Part shown: one piece after another, positions 323 to 5,485 of the stretch
Layout: each line of letters starts with the position of its first letter
How positions within the stretch are numbered: position 1 is the stretch's first letter
Source: Escherichia phage vB_EcoM_G9062
DNA length: 64,000 nt
Sequence record: NC_054920.1
Reading direction: 5' to 3' (one strand)
Position numbers and translations under genes: made by a program
Notes under the pieces: generated by a model
Told to the model about the DNA's origin: nothing
What the model saw: the letters and a program-made list of their open reading frames with translations, nothing else
The model's database searches: none

Positions 323-853
<531 letters not shown>

Positions 854-1309
854 TTAAAAGAGGCTGTTCATTATTCGGTAAAGTGAAGGACCCATCACAT
901 ATTGCCACTGAGTACGAGGAATAAGAGCAAAAGCATCCATCTCTGGAATCATAACGCCATCTTTATTTTCAAAATAAGACTCGCAATGGCAATTTCTAAA
1001 CATCTCATGCTCTACTGGAATCGTATAATAAAATAACTGTAAGTCTTTATTACTAGAATATTTAAATACACCTAAGTCTTCTAGAAGGTCTGGATTATAA
1101 TCGATAAAACCAGTCTCTTCTGAGCATTCTCTTTTTGCAGCTTCCAGTGCATTCAAATCAGAACTTTCTACGCGGCCCTTTGGAATATCCCAGCGATGTG
1201 CCATCATTCCAGGCTTACGAGAACCAGTAACCCGACCCATAAATAAATCTTTATCTTCTGTCATAAAGATAATACCAGCTGATAGTGTTTTCATTTTAAT
1301 TTCCTGCAT
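854..1309 (-). CDS. nudE: Nudix hydrolase, 151 aa
   Basis: Nudix box GRVESSDLNALEAAKRECSEETG (G-x5-E-x7-REx2EExG); position immediately next to e as for T4 e.1/nudE. Confidence 0.85.
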   Translation of the reverse strand: MQEIKMKTLSAGIIFMTEDKDLFMGRVTGSRKPGMMAHRWDIPKGRVESSDLNALEAAKRECSEETGFIDYNPDLLEDLGVFKYSSNKDLQLFYYTIPVEHEMFRNCHCESYFENKDGVMIPEMDAFALIPRTQWQYVMGPSLYRIMNSLF

Positions 1310-1482
1310 TCAGTGATAAAGTTATTTAAATTTTGAGTATATTTCTTTTCATCAAAAATCTTTTGTTGTCTGCGTAAACGCCATGGCATTTCAATGAACA
1401 TACGCCATATTCCTGATAATACTGCTGCTGTAAAAATATTAACAAGTATAGTTAAAAGAACCCAATCTCCTATTCTGTCCAT
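1291..1482 (-). CDS. Small membrane protein, 63 aa, hypothetical
   Basis: ORF with one hydrophobic helix; C-terminal tail ...FITECRKLK shared with neighbouring ORFs; overlaps nudE start in operon fashion. Confidence 0.5.
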   Translation of the reverse strand: MDRIGDWVLLTILVNIFTAAVLSGIWRMFIEMPWRLRRQQKIFDEKKYTQNLNNFITECRKLK

Positions 1483-1490
1483 TGGATTTT

Positions 1491-1778
1491 TTATAAAAAG
1501 TAAAATACGAACGATGATATAGGAAGACTAATGATATACCACAGAAGAACCTTCTTATCTGTGAACCAATCAGCATTCGTTAACTTAGCGCGACCGTTTT
1601 GAATACATACGAACTTATCATCTGTTACAGTAAATGGCTTAGCTGCTTGATATCCCATTCTAAACTCCCTAATCAACAAATTTTTCATATCTTCGGAACA
1701 ACCATTCCAGTCAACTCTATCAACTGAAATGCCATCATCCCCATCATCTAAATCATACCAGCGAGTTTTTAAAATCAT
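1491..1778 (-). CDS. Hypothetical protein, 95 aa, C-terminal hydrophobic segment
   Basis: ORF; ATGA-type overlap with upstream gene at 1775-1778. Confidence 0.5.
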   Translation of the reverse strand: MILKTRWYDLDDGDDGISVDRVDWNGCSEDMKNLLIREFRMGYQAAKPFTVTDDKFVCIQNGRAKLTNADWFTDKKVLLWYIISLPISSFVFYFL

Positions 1779-2137
1779 TTAATTTTCCTACAATCACTCA
1801 CAAACTCTTTCATTGACTCATTTTCAATATAAGACATGTAGCTATTATATTCTTTTAATTGTATTTTGTAATCCTTTTTTCTTTGCCAATTTATTTTAAA
1901 ATTATCATAATGAAAATATAACATGGTACCAAAGAATGAAAATAATGAAATCGCTATAGTAAAACGAAGTTCACTCCAAACCTCTGTTATAATTACTGTG
2001 CCGTCGATATTTAAAATAAAACAGTCAATTAACAATCCAATAAGACTACCCGCAAGAGCTGTAAATACTGATACAGCAAGAATTAATAGTGCCTCAGGAA
2101 ACGAATATTTGACTTTATTTAGTTTTGGCTTTTGCAT
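1775..2137 (-). CDS. Small membrane protein, 120 aa, hypothetical
   Basis: Two predicted hydrophobic helices; C-terminal ...EFVSDCRKIK tail paralogous to 1291-1482. Confidence 0.5.
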   Translation of the reverse strand: MQKPKLNKVKYSFPEALLILAVSVFTALAGSLIGLLIDCFILNIDGTVIITEVWSELRFTIAISLFSFFGTMLYFHYDNFKINWQRKKDYKIQLKEYNSYMSYIENESMKEFVSDCRKIK

Positions 2138-2532
2138 CGTGATTCCTTAACAAATTTCATAATTTCATCAAATTCATACATATCTAGCTTAAGCTGGTGT
2201 TCCTTTTTAATCTTTTTACACTGAGCTTTCCAATCACGTACACGTTTACGATAATGTCTTCCTTGATACCAGTATCCTACCCAATTTACGGGTACTAATA
2301 AAAGTGGAACTATTAATGGAAGAATTAGCATTAACACAAGTATTTCGCCAGAATCAATATCAGTCATAACATCTAAAACACCTCCAATAATCAATAGAAT
2401 TACAAATGATATGAGTATAACAGGACCTATTAACACATCAGTAGAAATTATCTGACGCTTTGGTTCATACTTCACAGGTTTACTTGGAAGGTATAGTGAT
2501 GGTTTTGACATATTCTCTACATTCCTTAACAA
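2119..2532 (-). CDS. Small membrane protein, 137 aa, hypothetical
   Basis: Two hydrophobic helices; C-terminal tail ...KFVKESRCK resembles the neighbouring paralogs. Confidence 0.5.
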   Translation of the reverse strand: MLRNVENMSKPSLYLPSKPVKYEPKRQIISTDVLIGPVILISFVILLIIGGVLDVMTDIDSGEILVLMLILPLIVPLLLVPVNWVGYWYQGRHYRKRVRDWKAQCKKIKKEHQLKLDMYEFDEIMKFVKESRCKSQN

Positions 2533-3094
2533 ATTTTTCTAGTAATAAATCACTTTCAAAATTGGGATTTTCTACAAATTTATCAAAAAGATCATCAACA
2601 ATAGTTAAGATATTCTTTTTACTAAGAATACGTTTATTTTCATGCTTCGTTTCAGAATCAACTATAAGAGTAAAGAAATATTTCTTGCCCTGAAATTTTA
2701 CAGTAGTATCAATATAAAATAAATTTGACTTTTGTAAATTACGTTTAAACCATGCGTCACTTAAACTATAAACACCGAGATAATCAAAATCGTCGTTTAA
2801 ATAACAAACCGTCCATTCAGGAGAAATGAAATCAGTAAATTCAACATCAAAATCACACGTCAATGAATGAATTGATTCAATACTGTTAATGAGTATTCCA
2901 GGACGTATTAAAGACTTTTTACCTCTAGAAAATCTTCCGGAAAGGCTTTCATCAGTTTCATATGAAGACCCCCAATAGTAATTACGTCCTTCTGCCATGC
3001 GTTTAAGAGCATTTAGTAATTGGTCTGGAACATCAACCTGTCTTTGGAACTCTTCAAACATTGAATTGAAATCACTTTGCATTTTCATTTTCAT
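2480..3094 (-). CDS. Hypothetical protein, 204 aa
   Basis: ORF; C-terminus contains EKFVKECREY, related to the tail motif of the small membrane proteins. Confidence 0.5.
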   Translation of the reverse strand: MKMKMQSDFNSMFEEFQRQVDVPDQLLNALKRMAEGRNYYWGSSYETDESLSGRFSRGKKSLIRPGILINSIESIHSLTCDFDVEFTDFISPEWTVCYLNDDFDYLGVYSLSDAWFKRNLQKSNLFYIDTTVKFQGKKYFFTLIVDSETKHENKRILSKKNILTIVDDLFDKFVENPNFESDLLLEKFVKECREYVKTITIPSK

Positions 3095-3135
3095 TCCTAT
3101 TTACTCCAAGTATAAGGGGCCGAAGCCCCTTATCA

Positions 3136-3729
3136 TTATTTCAGAGAATTAATGTATTCCTGAACATCGGCAGAGGTAGTTTCAACCCCAGAAATATTAC
3201 CGTTAAAGGTTTCAACTCGAGCAAGGGTATCTTCAATATCAACCTTAGTCAGTGCTGCAATTTCAACTACATCATCAGCAGTACTAATTCCAAGGGCATT
3301 TGCTGCACGAGTTTCACGGATATATTCCAATTTAACCGCAAGTTCTTGACGAGCATCATCTAACTCAACTACTTTCTTGGCGATTTCAATTCGCATTTCA
3401 GCATAACCGTCAGCCTTAGTAGTCAACTGCTCAGCTGTTCGACGATATAGTAAACCGAGTTTAGCATGCATTGTTACATCTTGGCCTTCGGAAAGAAGTT
3501 TACGAATTTCACGCTCTTTTGATTCGGCCTGTCGATTCTTTTCGATAACAAGTTCACGAATACGTTTTTCTTCGTTAATAGATTTAACAGAAGCAGTTTT
3601 TAGATCTTTAATTTTATCAAGTAGTTTTGCTGCTGCAGCAGTATACTGTTCTTCGACAGATAGATTTTTAGCCATAGCAGAACCAAGTTTAGTGCGAATA
3701 AACTCAACAATTTTCTTCAGTGTGTTCAT
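3136..3729 (-). CDS. Coiled-coil protein, 197 aa, function unknown
   Basis: ORF with long heptad-like charged segments (…[27 protein letters not shown]…). Confidence 0.55.
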
Positions 3730-3830
3730 AGTATTTCCTTAGGTTAATTGAGATTTAAAATCCGTAGGAGTATAATACTCTATCGTCAAATTATAGGCTC
3801 ATAATATCTCAATCATGAGCCTGCGTAAAC

Positions 3831-4094
3831 TTATTTCATATTATTGAAATATTCTTCTGCGATTTCGTCGTTATCATGGTAAACTTTAGAAGACAGTTTA
3901 ACATAACCTTCTGCTGTGAACATATTAATCACAACTTTTACAGTATACCACTGACCGTCTTCATTACCCATTACTGCGTAAGTTTCAAACATCGGATGAT
4001 CAGGACCGATAACTTTAATATCATTCACTGTACGACCGAAATCTTCTGAAACGCATTTCATAAAGAAGTTGAACAGTTCGCCGTAATTATCCAT
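3831..4094 (-). CDS. Hypothetical protein, about 87 aa (ORF extends to 4214, but the internal ATG at 4094 has a GGAGA ribosome-binding site)
   Basis: ORF; internal start MDNYGELFNFF... preceded by a Shine-Dalgarno-like GGAGA on the coding strand. Confidence 0.45.
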   Translation of the reverse strand: MDNYGELFNFFMKCVSEDFGRTVNDIKVIGPDHPMFETYAVMGNEDGQWYTVKVVINMFTAEGYVKLSSKVYHDNDEIAEEYFNNMK

Positions 4095-4288
4095 TTCATT
4101 CTCCAAGTTGTTTTCTGTATCAGTAGTTGATAGTTGTATAGTACCATGGAAGAACAGAGATGTAAACAGTTTTGTGAAAAAATTTTTAGGGAATTCTAGG
4201 GCAGGGATGGGCAATTAAAGGATAGGTAATATATTATAAAGGGTATAAACTAAATGATGCCTAGAGAGGTCCAGAAAGGCCTAGATAC

Positions 4289-4322: not shown

Positions 4323-4886
4323 TTATTTACCTAGTTTACTTATTATAGCTTCTGCAGCAGCTTTTAGCTTAGATGCAGTGTTAATACGATTTTTAATTTC
4401 AGTATACGCATCGCCAAGAACATCAAGGCTATCAGAATAAACACTTACACTATTGCGTTCGCTATTTGAAATAGAACCTTTAGTTTTGCGGTCAAAATCG
4501 GTGTACACGTCTTGAAGATCGCGGGCTGCCTTCTTTGCATCATCCAATGCATCAAGAGCTTTATTCAAAGCATTAACGTATTTTTTAGTGTCGAACATAT
4601 TCTTAGAAATTTTAACAGGTGCGCGTTCAGGAGTAGCTAACACAGATTTAGGAACCTGAGCGCCAGATGCCAATTTCTTAGAAATTTTGAAAAATGCTTT
4701 ATTGAATTTATTTTCTTGACTCATTGTAAAAGAACTATTATCGATGTTGTACATTTCAATAGCTTTAGCTTTCCACTTAAGAAAATCGCCGCGGTCTTTT
4801 GGGTCCAATTGGAAGAATACTTTAGTAAGATCTGCTTCAGATGGTAATTTTGCTGCTTCGGTTAAAAATTCGGCATAGGTTTTCAT
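4323..4886 (-). CDS. Internal-protein-like capsid-targeted protein, 187 aa
   Basis: N-terminus MKTYAEFLTEA resembles the T4 internal-protein capsid targeting sequence (MKTYQEFIAE, cleaved by gp21 after L/I-x-E); followed by a terminator hairpin. Confidence 0.65.
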   Translation of the reverse strand: MKTYAEFLTEAAKLPSEADLTKVFFQLDPKDRGDFLKWKAKAIEMYNIDNSSFTMSQENKFNKAFFKISKKLASGAQVPKSVLATPERAPVKISKNMFDTKKYVNALNKALDALDDAKKAARDLQDVYTDFDRKTKGSISNSERNSVSVYSDSLDVLGDAYTEIKNRINTASKLKAAAEAIISKLGK

Positions 4887-5011: not shown

Positions 5012-5485
5012 TCATTTGATTTGTTTAGCAGACCAAATGCGGTCTTTAATAATTTTTTGGATGTCTTCAACATACTCAAGAGAGTGAACATGTGGATTAT
5101 CTTTGAAACTATAAGCACGGGCTAACTTTTGGCCTTCGGTTTTGATTACTAAAAGCTCTTTAAGGATAGCTTCATATTTGGAGATAATTCCTTTAACAAT
5201 ATTTTTCTCTTGTGTGACTTTAGGATCTTCTTTAGGAGCAGGTTTACCTGAAGCCTTTGCAAAAGCAGCTCCAGTAGCAACTAAACTTTTCCAAGCCATA
5301 CTAACTGCATTCCCTGTAAATCCTTCGGCTTTCATATCACGAGCAAATTGGAATCGTGATTCATCGGAAGCATCTTTATAGGAATATTTACCCGCGGCAA
5401 TGGCAGCTTTTGCAACAGCTTGAATTTCAGTGCTAGATGCTTCATTTAACACCGCTTCATTTAAAAATTGAGTATATGATTTCAT
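5012..5485 (-). CDS. Internal-protein-like capsid-targeted protein, 157 aa
   Basis: N-terminus MKSYTQFLNEA (CTS-like, LNE-A putative cleavage site); flanked by two identical terminator hairpins. Confidence 0.6.
   Translation of the reverse strand: MKSYTQFLNEAVLNEASSTEIQAVAKAAIAAGKYSYKDASDESRFQFARDMKAEGFTGNAVSMAWKSLVATGAAFAKASGKPAPKEDPKVTQEKNIVKGIISKYEAILKELLVIKTEGQKLARAYSFKDNPHVHSLEYVEDIQKIIKDRIWSAKQIK

Follow-up and report, generated by a model that had tools for sequence, protein, structure and literature searches.

A C-terminal tail shared by the adjacent T4-type early genes e.2 to e.5, and in looser form by e.6

Tequatrovirus genomes match the window (the whole 64,000-nt stretch of DNA analysed here) at about 100% nucleotide identity, and on this sequence match the phage is assigned to Tequatrovirus. 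The minus-strand open reading frames of 63, 120, 137 and 204 aa, at 1291-1482, 1775-2137, 2119-2532 and 2480-3094, belong to the T4 early genes e.2, e.3, e.4 and e.5, which are already catalogued (Table 1). The T4 copies are 83-96% identical to those of the window at the protein level, with identical overlaps and an identical order between e.6 and nudE: e.5 directly after e.6, e.4 between e.5 and e.3, and e.3 between e.4 and e.2. Each frame matches a PHROG family of its own (PHROGs 2203, 2330, 2604 and 2607; E 1e-28 to 1e-110), and newer Pfam families cover e.2 (PF26896, 'Phage_T4_Y06M') and e.5 (PF26876). Transcription is on the minus strand and heads for nudE and for the lysozyme gene e. Read that way, the genes come upstream of nudE, and not downstream of it as a preliminary description of this DNA had placed them. 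The four reading frames and the tails quoted for them in that description are indeed present on this strand; the identity with the catalogued T4 genes and the frameshift in e.2 did not figure in it. For T4 e.2 to e.6, the supplement of PMC9697503 gives all five RNAs as early and all five proteins as detected.

The genes are tightly packed, with overlaps of 32 nt (e.5/e.4), 19 nt (e.4/e.3) and ATGA (e.3/e.2) and with embedded ribosome-binding sites, in the operon-like arrangement described earlier. The longer e.4 frame of 137 aa begins at a TTG at 2532, and phrog_2604 spans its residues 8-137; T4 e.4 has 130 aa, and the start is most likely the ATG at 2511, as in T4. The most likely start of e.5 is likewise that of T4, at 3088, giving 202 aa. 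A second ATG of nudE, at 1294, is preceded by AGGA and forms an ATGA overlap with the e.2 stop. A hairpin lies between e.6 and e.5 (Table 1), and the closest phage record has a terminator annotated somewhere within the stretch matching 800-3800.

Table 1. Features of the e.6 to nudE region (positions in the window)
Feature	Position	Strand	Description	Support
nudE	854..1309	-	served by the e.2 tail junction	Pfam NUDIX E 4e-13
e.2, C-terminal fragment	1291..1482	-	63 aa; TM2, basic juxtamembrane stretch and tail NFITECRKLK	
e.2 tail motif	1303..1320	-	FITECR	
e.2, N-terminal fragment	1491..1778	-	95 aa; cytoplasmic domain and TM1	phrog_2203 positions 1-100, E 1.9e-42
Homopolymer with one base missing	1495..1499	.	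A5 on + strand (T5 on coding strand)	alignment with U115 and T4
e.3	1775..2137	-	120 aa; predicted two-TM inner-membrane protein	phrog_2330 E 3.2e-58; T4 e.3 83% identical
e.3 tail motif	1787..1804	-	FVSDCR	
e.4	2119..2511	-	130 aa from ATG; predicted two-TM inner-membrane protein	phrog_2604 E 1.7e-70
e.4 tail motif	2137..2154	-	FVKESR, Cys two residues later; overlaps e.3 start region	
Exact 16-nt direct repeat, copy 1	2142..2157	.	ATTCCTTAACAAATTT; in e.4 tail	
e.5	2480..3088	-	202 aa; soluble	phrog_2607 E 9.2e-110; PF26876 precomputed on homologues
e.5 tail motif	2516..2533	-	FVKECR (in KFVKECREY, 11 residues from end)	
Exact 16-nt direct repeat, copy 2	2521..2536	.	in e.5 tail	
Hairpin	3112..3133	-	GC-rich, UUCG loop; between e.6 and e.5	
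e.6	3136..3729	-	197 aa; conserved coiled-coil, always then an e.5-like gene	1098 phage records

The three small frames had been taken as consecutive genes, whereas a 95-aa frame separates that of 63 aa from that of 120 aa. The 95- and 63-aa frames are the two halves of one disrupted e.2, split by an apparent 1-nt deletion. Intact e.2 has 162 aa in relatives; the larger fragment aligns with e.2 of phage U115, and the smaller matches positions 106-166 of phrog_2203 (E 1.5e-28). The homopolymer is A6 elsewhere, all of the nearest relatives being 1 nt longer, and the deletion was found in none of the 261 matching phage records. No Shine-Dalgarno sequence of its own was found for the 63-aa frame, which is the frameshifted end of e.2 rather than the separate gene it had been thought to be. 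The genes are the same as T4 e.2 to e.5, with the difference that T4 e.2, itself broken, is split by other frameshifts than the deletion private to the window. Broken in T4 and in the window and deleted in RB32, at least e.2 is therefore dispensable; in laboratory hosts the genes can probably be dispensed with.

Hydropathy finds the hydrophobic helices that had been noted, one or two to a frame, in e.2, e.3 and e.4, and the net charge is +3 to +8 at the termini and 0 to -4 in the loops. All three are accordingly predicted to be inner-membrane two-helix hairpins with both the N- and the C-terminus inside, an arrangement in which the tail would be cytoplasmic, as had been proposed. In an AlphaFold2 model of e.3 (pLDDT 86), with helices at residues 13-45, 50-56 and 58-119, TM2 and the cytoplasmic part form the single last helix, TM2 extending as a cytoplasmic helix of ~40 residues that carries the motif at its end, and M109, F112, V113, C116 and I119 have the spacing of one hydrophobic face. 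By analogy, TM2 of e.2 and e.4 may likewise extend as a long cytoplasmic helix. On the model, the tail would constitute the last two helix turns, an amphipathic motif of the form hydrophobic-x-x-F-[IV]-x-[ED]-C-[RK]. Nearly all of the top 22 PDB matches of the e.3 model, a TM hairpin with a long cytoplasmic helix, are to ExbB/TolQ, at values that are not significant (E 0.24-5, TM-scores about 0.3); ExbB/TolQ proteins are about twice the length of e.3 and have three TM helices.

Translation of the entire 64 kb in all six frames contains the pattern F[IV]x[ED][CSI][RK] five times. Four of the occurrences are no more than 11 residues from the stops of the adjacent genes e.2 to e.5, the fifth being antisense to the tail-sheath gene. 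In the broader form h-x-x-F-[IV]-x-x-[C/h]-[RK], placed at most about 12 residues before the stop, the motif is present in e.2, e.3, e.4 and e.5, and a loose version, defined after seeing the data, picks out exactly e.6, e.5, e.4, e.3 and e.2 among the 77 open reading frames of the window. A chance origin of the tail similarity is rejected on these counts. Profile-profile comparison with hhalign gives significant P values, from 1e-7 to 4e-4, for e.3/e.4 (1.4e-7), e.3/e.2 (2e-6), e.5/e.2 (5.5e-5) and e.5/e.3 (3.9e-4), the last two bearing out the relatedness claimed for the tail of the 204-aa frame; the exception is e.4/e.2, where the comparison is weak (P 0.06). With single sequences and the Smith-Waterman algorithm, e.2/e.3 alone is clearly significant (z 4.9), and the other pairs reach z 1.8-2.4.

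Alignment extends beyond the tail for e.3/e.4 only (44 columns, P 1.4e-7), two proteins that also have the N-terminus M-x-K-P-x-L in common, and the profile alignments of e.3/e.2 and of e.5 with the others are confined to the tail. The paralogous family of the preliminary description thus stands as regards the conserved tail and the two-helix set, but homology beyond the tail is seen for e.3 and e.4 alone. The e.3 profile, run with full HMMER against 1.84 billion representative proteins, returned only 11 matches, all of them in the same narrow group or doubtful, and a word-indexed search of proteins, with e.3 itself as the one query, returned close relatives only. On contig L009, two genes in tandem both match the e.3 profile.

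Conservation in relatives, the lack of which had been named as a ground for refutation, is found: orthologues from eight Straboviridae genera retain the tail. Mosig-, Dhaka-, Gapriver-, Jiaoda- and Moonvirus carry the motif, as does one metagenomic contig. Each family alignment has few invariant columns, tail residues among them, and F186 and C190 are the sole invariant columns across the e.5-like proteins of 8 genera. The codons of the tails vary synonymously, with AGG, AGA, CGT and CGA for Arg, TGT and TGC for Cys, and TTT and TTC for Phe. Taken together, the comparisons indicate that the tail motif is under selection at the protein level.

The tail codons have a second use. The AGGAAA after the e.2 tail motif is the ribosome-binding site of nudE, and an AAGGAA inside the e.5 tail motif precedes the e.4 start. 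In the 19 tails that were examined, the start codon of the following gene comes 17-31 nt past the Phe codon, and in many of them the Shine-Dalgarno sequence is AAGGAA (encoding K-E) or AGGAAA (encoding R-K). One might thus suppose that the tail similarity is a nucleotide-level by-product of the signal that starts translation of the following gene (Shine-Dalgarno sequence, AT-rich spacer and ATG), read in frame, for which the regular spacing and the frequent presence of the Shine-Dalgarno sequence in tail codons would speak. This explanation is very unlikely. The Shine-Dalgarno sequence shifts among the x-E, C-R-K and R-G codons and, for two genes of contig L009, falls outside the motif altogether, yet F-[IV]-x-x-C-[RK] stays; third codon positions vary freely; the Phe, Ile/Val and Cys codons belong to no ribosome-binding site; and the e.6 tail is conserved even though the e.5 start is about 40 nt past the e.6 stop. 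On the codon variation and the shifting Shine-Dalgarno sequence, a purely RNA-level origin of the tail is rejected as largely refuted.

Because the next gene's ribosome-binding site lies within the tail codons, these recurring junctions probably act as cross-over points at which whole genes are gained or lost. The e.4 and e.5 tails share an exact direct repeat (Table 1). In RB32, the e.3 tail runs straight into the last part of the e.2 tail with exact deletion of e.2, a structure that identifies recombination between the two tails as the route of the loss and that is consistent with an array growing and shrinking through unequal crossing-over. Judged from the sequences, the membrane genes e.2 to e.4 probably arose by tandem duplication. 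T4-type genomes reportedly undergo modular shuffling at short conserved gene-border sequences (promoter/stem-loop cassettes). There, as in the RB32 deletion, short boundary repeats mediate the precise gain and loss of accessory genes, but the repeat of e.2 to e.5 consists of a coding tail and the next ribosome-binding site rather than of a promoter-hairpin cassette. Codons that serve at once as protein motif, ribosome-binding site and recombination point offer an example of how T4-type accessory arrays expand and contract.

The remaining two proteins differ from the hairpins in kind. The e.5 protein is soluble, with a body unrelated to the membrane paralogues and the same tail. Foldseek with the e.5 model returned nearly exclusively RelA/SpoT-type small alarmone synthetases among the top 20 matches (E 0.02-0.13, TM <0.21), matches that are not trusted, the model being too poor (pLDDT 56); a BFVD search with this model returned uncharacterised Straboviridae proteins only, and PDB sequence searches with e.5 and e.6 found nothing significant. 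At the C-terminus of e.6, an invariant ...EYINSLK, in which Y192, L196 and K197 are invariant, follows the tail pattern more loosely. Aeromonas and Pseudotevenvirus phages, too, have an e.5-like gene with the motif that adjoins e.6 or is separated from it by one small open reading frame, and no two-TM paralogues were seen in those phages.

T4 is the best-studied virulent phage, and roughly half of its genes, e.2 to e.6 included, have no assigned function. Searches for the function of e.2 to e.6 gave no match in Pfam or NCBIfam and only their own unannotated families in PHROGs, and PADLOC-DB profiles gave no match for 7 proteins at E <= 0.1. Full-text literature searches found no functional study of e.2 to e.6, the catalogues give e.2 to e.5 no function, and no mention of the shared tail was found in the searchable literature and catalogues. 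The finding is by itself an annotation refinement of genes already known, and not the discovery of a new system. Our best guess is that in early infection the tail would serve as a common helix for docking or assembly on the cytoplasmic side of the membrane. As a protein-protein contact it may bundle these proteins with one another or bind one common partner, and at that stage it could recruit e.5, and perhaps e.6, to the inner membrane from the cytoplasm. On the explanation as a whole, of e.2 to e.5 as tandem-duplicated T4-type early genes with the tail as their shared protein-protein contact, our confidence is evenly divided. Several observations weigh against it: the motif is not uniform, with V, I, M or S in place of the Cys in e.4-type members; at least e.2 is dispensable; the loose motif that takes in e.6 was defined once the data had been seen; and phage VR7 keeps e.2, e.3 and e.4, with e.5 and e.6 absent from the syntenic position, so that for the membrane proteins the proximity of e.5 or e.6 is no strict requirement. 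Five adjacent early genes that share one C-terminal helix motif provide a cheap experimental handle.

A rival proposal would have the tail bind lipid, as a membrane-binding amphipathic helix like those of MinD and FtsA that anchors e.5 and e.6 and folds the helix end of e.2 to e.4 onto the bilayer. At the very C-terminus, the amphipathic tail is bordered by Lys and Arg, and it occurs in soluble and membrane proteins alike; both would suit such a helix, but the hydrophobic face is small and has conserved acidic residues beside it, and integral membrane proteins need no such signal. Lipid-binding helices tolerate much sequence drift, and invariance of Phe and Cys over eight genera would be unusual for one; we consider the proposal unlikely.

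The conserved Cys beside Arg/Lys might instead point to a reactive or metal-binding thiol with a redox or metal function, for example in a Cys layer of a bundle. Its invariance in the e.5-like proteins of eight genera is what this would predict, the e.6/e.5 genes of distant genera are situated among nrdD, nrdG and nrdH, and some records label e.3 or e.4 a 'sulfurtransferase'. Against this, the label has no profile match behind it, each tail has one Cys only, and V, I, M or S replaces the Cys in e.4-type members. A thiol function is, in our judgement, highly improbable.

The preliminary description had offered superinfection exclusion, lysis timing or anti-defence as candidate functions, for which Pfam, PHROGs, NCBIfam and PADLOC gave no supporting match. 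A reading in which each small membrane protein acts on its own as an effector of this kind, with the tail as a family relic, has a small chance of being right. These are early small inner-membrane proteins encoded in a variable accessory region, with a paralogue copy number that differs between genera, and T4 Imm, Sp, the holin/antiholin t, rI and rIII are likewise small phage-encoded inner-membrane proteins, which are produced ahead of late lysis and which laboratory growth does not require. However, e.2 to e.5 have no sequence or profile similarity to them (Pfam, PHROGs), to other holins and antiholins or to defence-related families, and in each protein the tail, unlike a relic, ranks with the best-conserved parts. 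To our knowledge, none of the T4 proteins named carries this tail or occurs as a tandem paralogous array.

A bolder form of the docking proposal would make e.6 to e.2 one early module by which the phage maintains or remodels the inner membrane of its host during infection, and in which a variable set of two-helix adaptors would recruit e.6, possibly a PspA/Vipp1/ESCRT-III-like protein, and its partner e.5, every member using the same C-terminal docking helix; we find this quite improbable. The Psp system (PspA/IM30/Vipp1 with PspB and PspC) similarly sets a peripheral coiled-coil protein, like e.6, beside small membrane proteins with cytoplasmic helices, although PspB and PspC each contain a single TM helix and lack a tail of this kind. 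The similarity of e.6 to PspA/Vipp1 is not significant (E 0.3-0.7, within a range of 0.3-2.4 by hmmsearch of the PDB; P 0.016 by hhalign, with a PspA/Vipp1 profile of two sequences, the plasmid collection being too poor in PspA diversity for a better one), and Pfam PspA_IM30 (PF04012) matched none of six e.6 homologues. With e.6 collinear with Vipp1 over residues 5-140 and with the PspA/Vipp1 profile over residues 2-61, a remote relationship of e.6 to PspA/IM30/ESCRT-III may be taken as a lead only.

The four ORFs of the preliminary description are present in the window with the tails quoted for them, and they belong to catalogued T4 genes. Comparison with the T4 reference and phage U115 yields a map of the e–e.6 region (see table), all on the minus strand, that agrees with PHROG profile matches (E 1e-28 to 1e-110). 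Over positions 800-3800, identity is ~100% with Escherichia phage vB_EcoM_G2540-3 and exceeds 90% for nearly all of the 517 phage records that match, which are chiefly from Tequatrovirus-type phages. The three small ORFs, however, are not consecutive, as a 95-aa ORF sits between those of 63 and 120 aa; nor is the 63-aa ORF, which lacks its own ribosome-binding site, a separate gene. Joined together, these two ORFs (95 and 63 aa) make up e.2, in relatives a single gene of 162 aa, broken here where a homopolymer is one base short (A5 at + strand 1495-1499). All close relatives are 1 nt longer, and the deletion (window 1487-1500) is shared by none of 261 matching phage records. Either the mutation is private to this phage or the homopolymer was misread in sequencing; in T4, e.2 is itself frameshifted, but differently, at a neighbouring run.

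Coordinates of the genes of the e–e.6 region, two neighbouring ORFs, and a second tandem gene family in relatives (L numbers are loci of the phages named)
Feature	Sequence	Position	Strand	Basis or members
e (lysozyme)	window	323-817	minus	T4 + U115 comparison
nudE	window	854-1309	minus	T4 + U115 comparison
e.2	window	1291-1482 plus 1491-1778	minus	T4 + U115 comparison
e.3	window	1775-2137	minus	T4 + U115 comparison
e.4	window	2119-2511	minus	T4 + U115 comparison
e.5	window	2480-3088	minus	T4 + U115 comparison
e.6	window	3136-3729	minus	T4 + U115 comparison
187-aa ORF	window	4323-4886	minus	
157-aa ORF	window	5012-5485	minus	
Second tandem family	L003	5081-6340		VR7 138c-142c
Second tandem family	L006	4752-5546		JK42 132-134
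Second tandem family	L007	2183-3221		Bp7
Second tandem family	L016	3686-4454		KM16 160-162

In a six-frame translation of the whole window, the tail pattern F[IV]x[ED][CSI][RK] has five occurrences: one at the C-terminus of each of the adjacent genes e.2–e.5, and one antisense to the tail-sheath gene. Comparison of profiles made from orthologues bears out the proposed resemblance for e.3/e.4 (P 1.4e-7, 44 columns), e.3/e.2 (P 2e-6), e.3 and an additional Mosigvirus paralogue (P 1.4e-5), e.5/e.2 (P 5.5e-5), and e.5/e.3 (P 3.9e-4), but not for e.4/e.2 (P only 0.06); by single-sequence local alignment of the cytoplasmic ends, only e.2/e.3 is clearly significant (z 4.9), the remaining pairs giving z of about 2. 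An N-terminal M-x-K-P-x-L is also common to e.3 and e.4. By hydropathy, e.3, e.4, and reassembled e.2 each have two membrane helices, and e.5 has none. Both ends of e.2, e.3, and e.4 are predicted to be cytoplasmic, because their termini are positive and the loop neutral to acidic. An AlphaFold2 model of e.3 (pLDDT 86) extends the second membrane helix as a single helix up to residue 119, with M109, F112, V113, C116, and I119 spaced so as to form one hydrophobic face.

In all 19 tails examined the next start codon lies 17-31 nt after the motif, and the Shine-Dalgarno of the next gene is often inside it; in the window, AGGA or AAGGA within the upstream tail precedes each of e.2, e.3, e.4, and nudE. 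The tail similarity might therefore have arisen at the RNA level, an explanation that needed testing and that fails: the Shine-Dalgarno occupies differing tail codons, in a metagenomic contig it falls outside the motif in two genes, and the tail codons vary synonymously (Phe TTT/TTC; Cys TGT/TGC; Arg AGG/AGA/CGT/CGA; Ile/Val also). The tails would also serve as recombination points. An exact 16-nt repeat is common to e.4 and e.5, and in RB32 (L018 1246-1340) e.2 is missing precisely: the tail of e.3 runs directly into the last e.2-tail codons and the nudE start, so that the tail is chimeric and the nudE start intact. Recombination of the e.3 tail repeat with that of e.2 removed the gene; given the shared repeat and this exact loss, unequal crossing-over at the tails would explain variable gene copy number.

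The tails are conserved in relatives: e.2–e.5-type tails occur in Gaprivervirus VR7 and Dhakavirus Bp7, five tail bearers in Moonvirus KM16 and in Mosigvirus JK42 (one of the latter a further two-helix paralogue), and, in Jiaodavirus KpnM6E1, an e.5-like protein and three two-helix proteins, sometimes with W for F and V or M for C. The metagenomic contig has four two-helix genes in succession, then nudE and lysozyme. Few columns are invariant in each orthologue alignment, and tail residues are among them. The family is narrow: of 1.84 billion representative proteins, an e.3 profile matched just 11. In Mosig-, Dhaka-, Gapriver-, and Moonvirus, a second tandem family, of small soluble proteins all ending W-[VI]-S-S-S-x-x-C (or W-Y-x-S-S-C), separates e.3 from e.2; the window has no member of it.

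Far more widespread than e.2–e.5 is e.6 (1098 phage records), after which a very divergent e.5-like protein is encoded in every examined genus having e.6. This order extends to an Aeromonas phage and Pseudotevenvirus, in the examined members of which no two-helix paralogues were seen; the pair is separated by a 65-aa ORF in RB43. Across genera, the motif Phe and Cys are the only invariant columns of the e.5-like proteins, and the e.6 C-terminus has invariant Y192..L196-K197. A loosened motif, chosen post hoc with e.6 already seen, lies near the C-terminus of five of 77 window ORFs (e.6, e.5, e.4, e.3, and the e.2 fragment) versus 0.8 in shuffles. VR7 keeps e.2–e.4, with e.5 and e.6 missing from the syntenic position. 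In distant genera (Aeromonas phage Asfd_1, RB43, and Cronobacter phage Banach), the neighbours of the e.6/e.5-like pair are genes for anaerobic ribonucleotide reductase and glutaredoxin (nrdD, nrdG, nrdH) instead of nudE and e.

For the five genes in T4, the supplement of PMC9697503 lists every RNA as early and every protein as detected by mass spectrometry; we found no functional study of e.2–e.6. HMM searches matched e.2–e.6 to no known family beyond their own (PHROG; among newer Pfam families in precomputed annotations, PF26876 for e.5 and PF26896 “Phage_T4_Y06M” for e.2), and the local Pfam copy gave no match. Collinear alignments of e.6 with Vipp1 (residues 5-140, E 0.3-0.7) and with a profile of two sequences, PspA and Vipp1 (residues 2-61, P 0.016), are not significant, and e.6 has no Pfam hit. 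Small alarmone synthetases (RelQ/RelP) make up nearly all of the top 20 PDB matches to a low-confidence e.5 model (E 0.02-0.13, TM < 0.21), but because the model is poor these are unreliable; its matches in BFVD are uncharacterised proteins from T4-like phages of Klebsiella, Erwinia, and Citrobacter. Beyond the identity, architecture, and evolution of the array, which we regard as established, the most likely role we can infer for the tail is that of a common contact helix, through which these proteins would assemble with one another, or bind a single partner, on the cytoplasmic side of the inner membrane. That the genes have a tail in common, that it extends to e.5 and e.6, and that it is used as a recombination point usefully refines what is known of them but does not make this a new kind of system.

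The T4-style nudE start (ATG at 1309) is without a Shine-Dalgarno; a second ATG (1294), from which U115 nudE is annotated, is preceded by AGGAAATTAAA and forms an ATGA overlap with the stop codon of e.2. In some deposited genomes e.3 or e.4 goes by the name “sulfurtransferase”, and e.6 by “host specificity protein”; neither name has support from any profile search made here. Between e.6 and e.5, a GC-rich hairpin whose loop is UUCG (3112-3133), not followed by a U-run on the coding strand, is probably RNA-stabilising or attenuating. A 127-aa ORF (3831-4214) is probably the 87-aa e.8, phrog_2678 spanning only residues 41-127, and no T4 e.7 counterpart lies between e.6 and e.8 in the window. The 187- and 157-aa ORFs have only their first 11 residues in common (MK[TS]Y..FL.EA, E 0.013); they are probably polymorphic internal proteins, since this N-terminus resembles the N-terminal sequence that targets the internal head proteins of T4 to the capsid.
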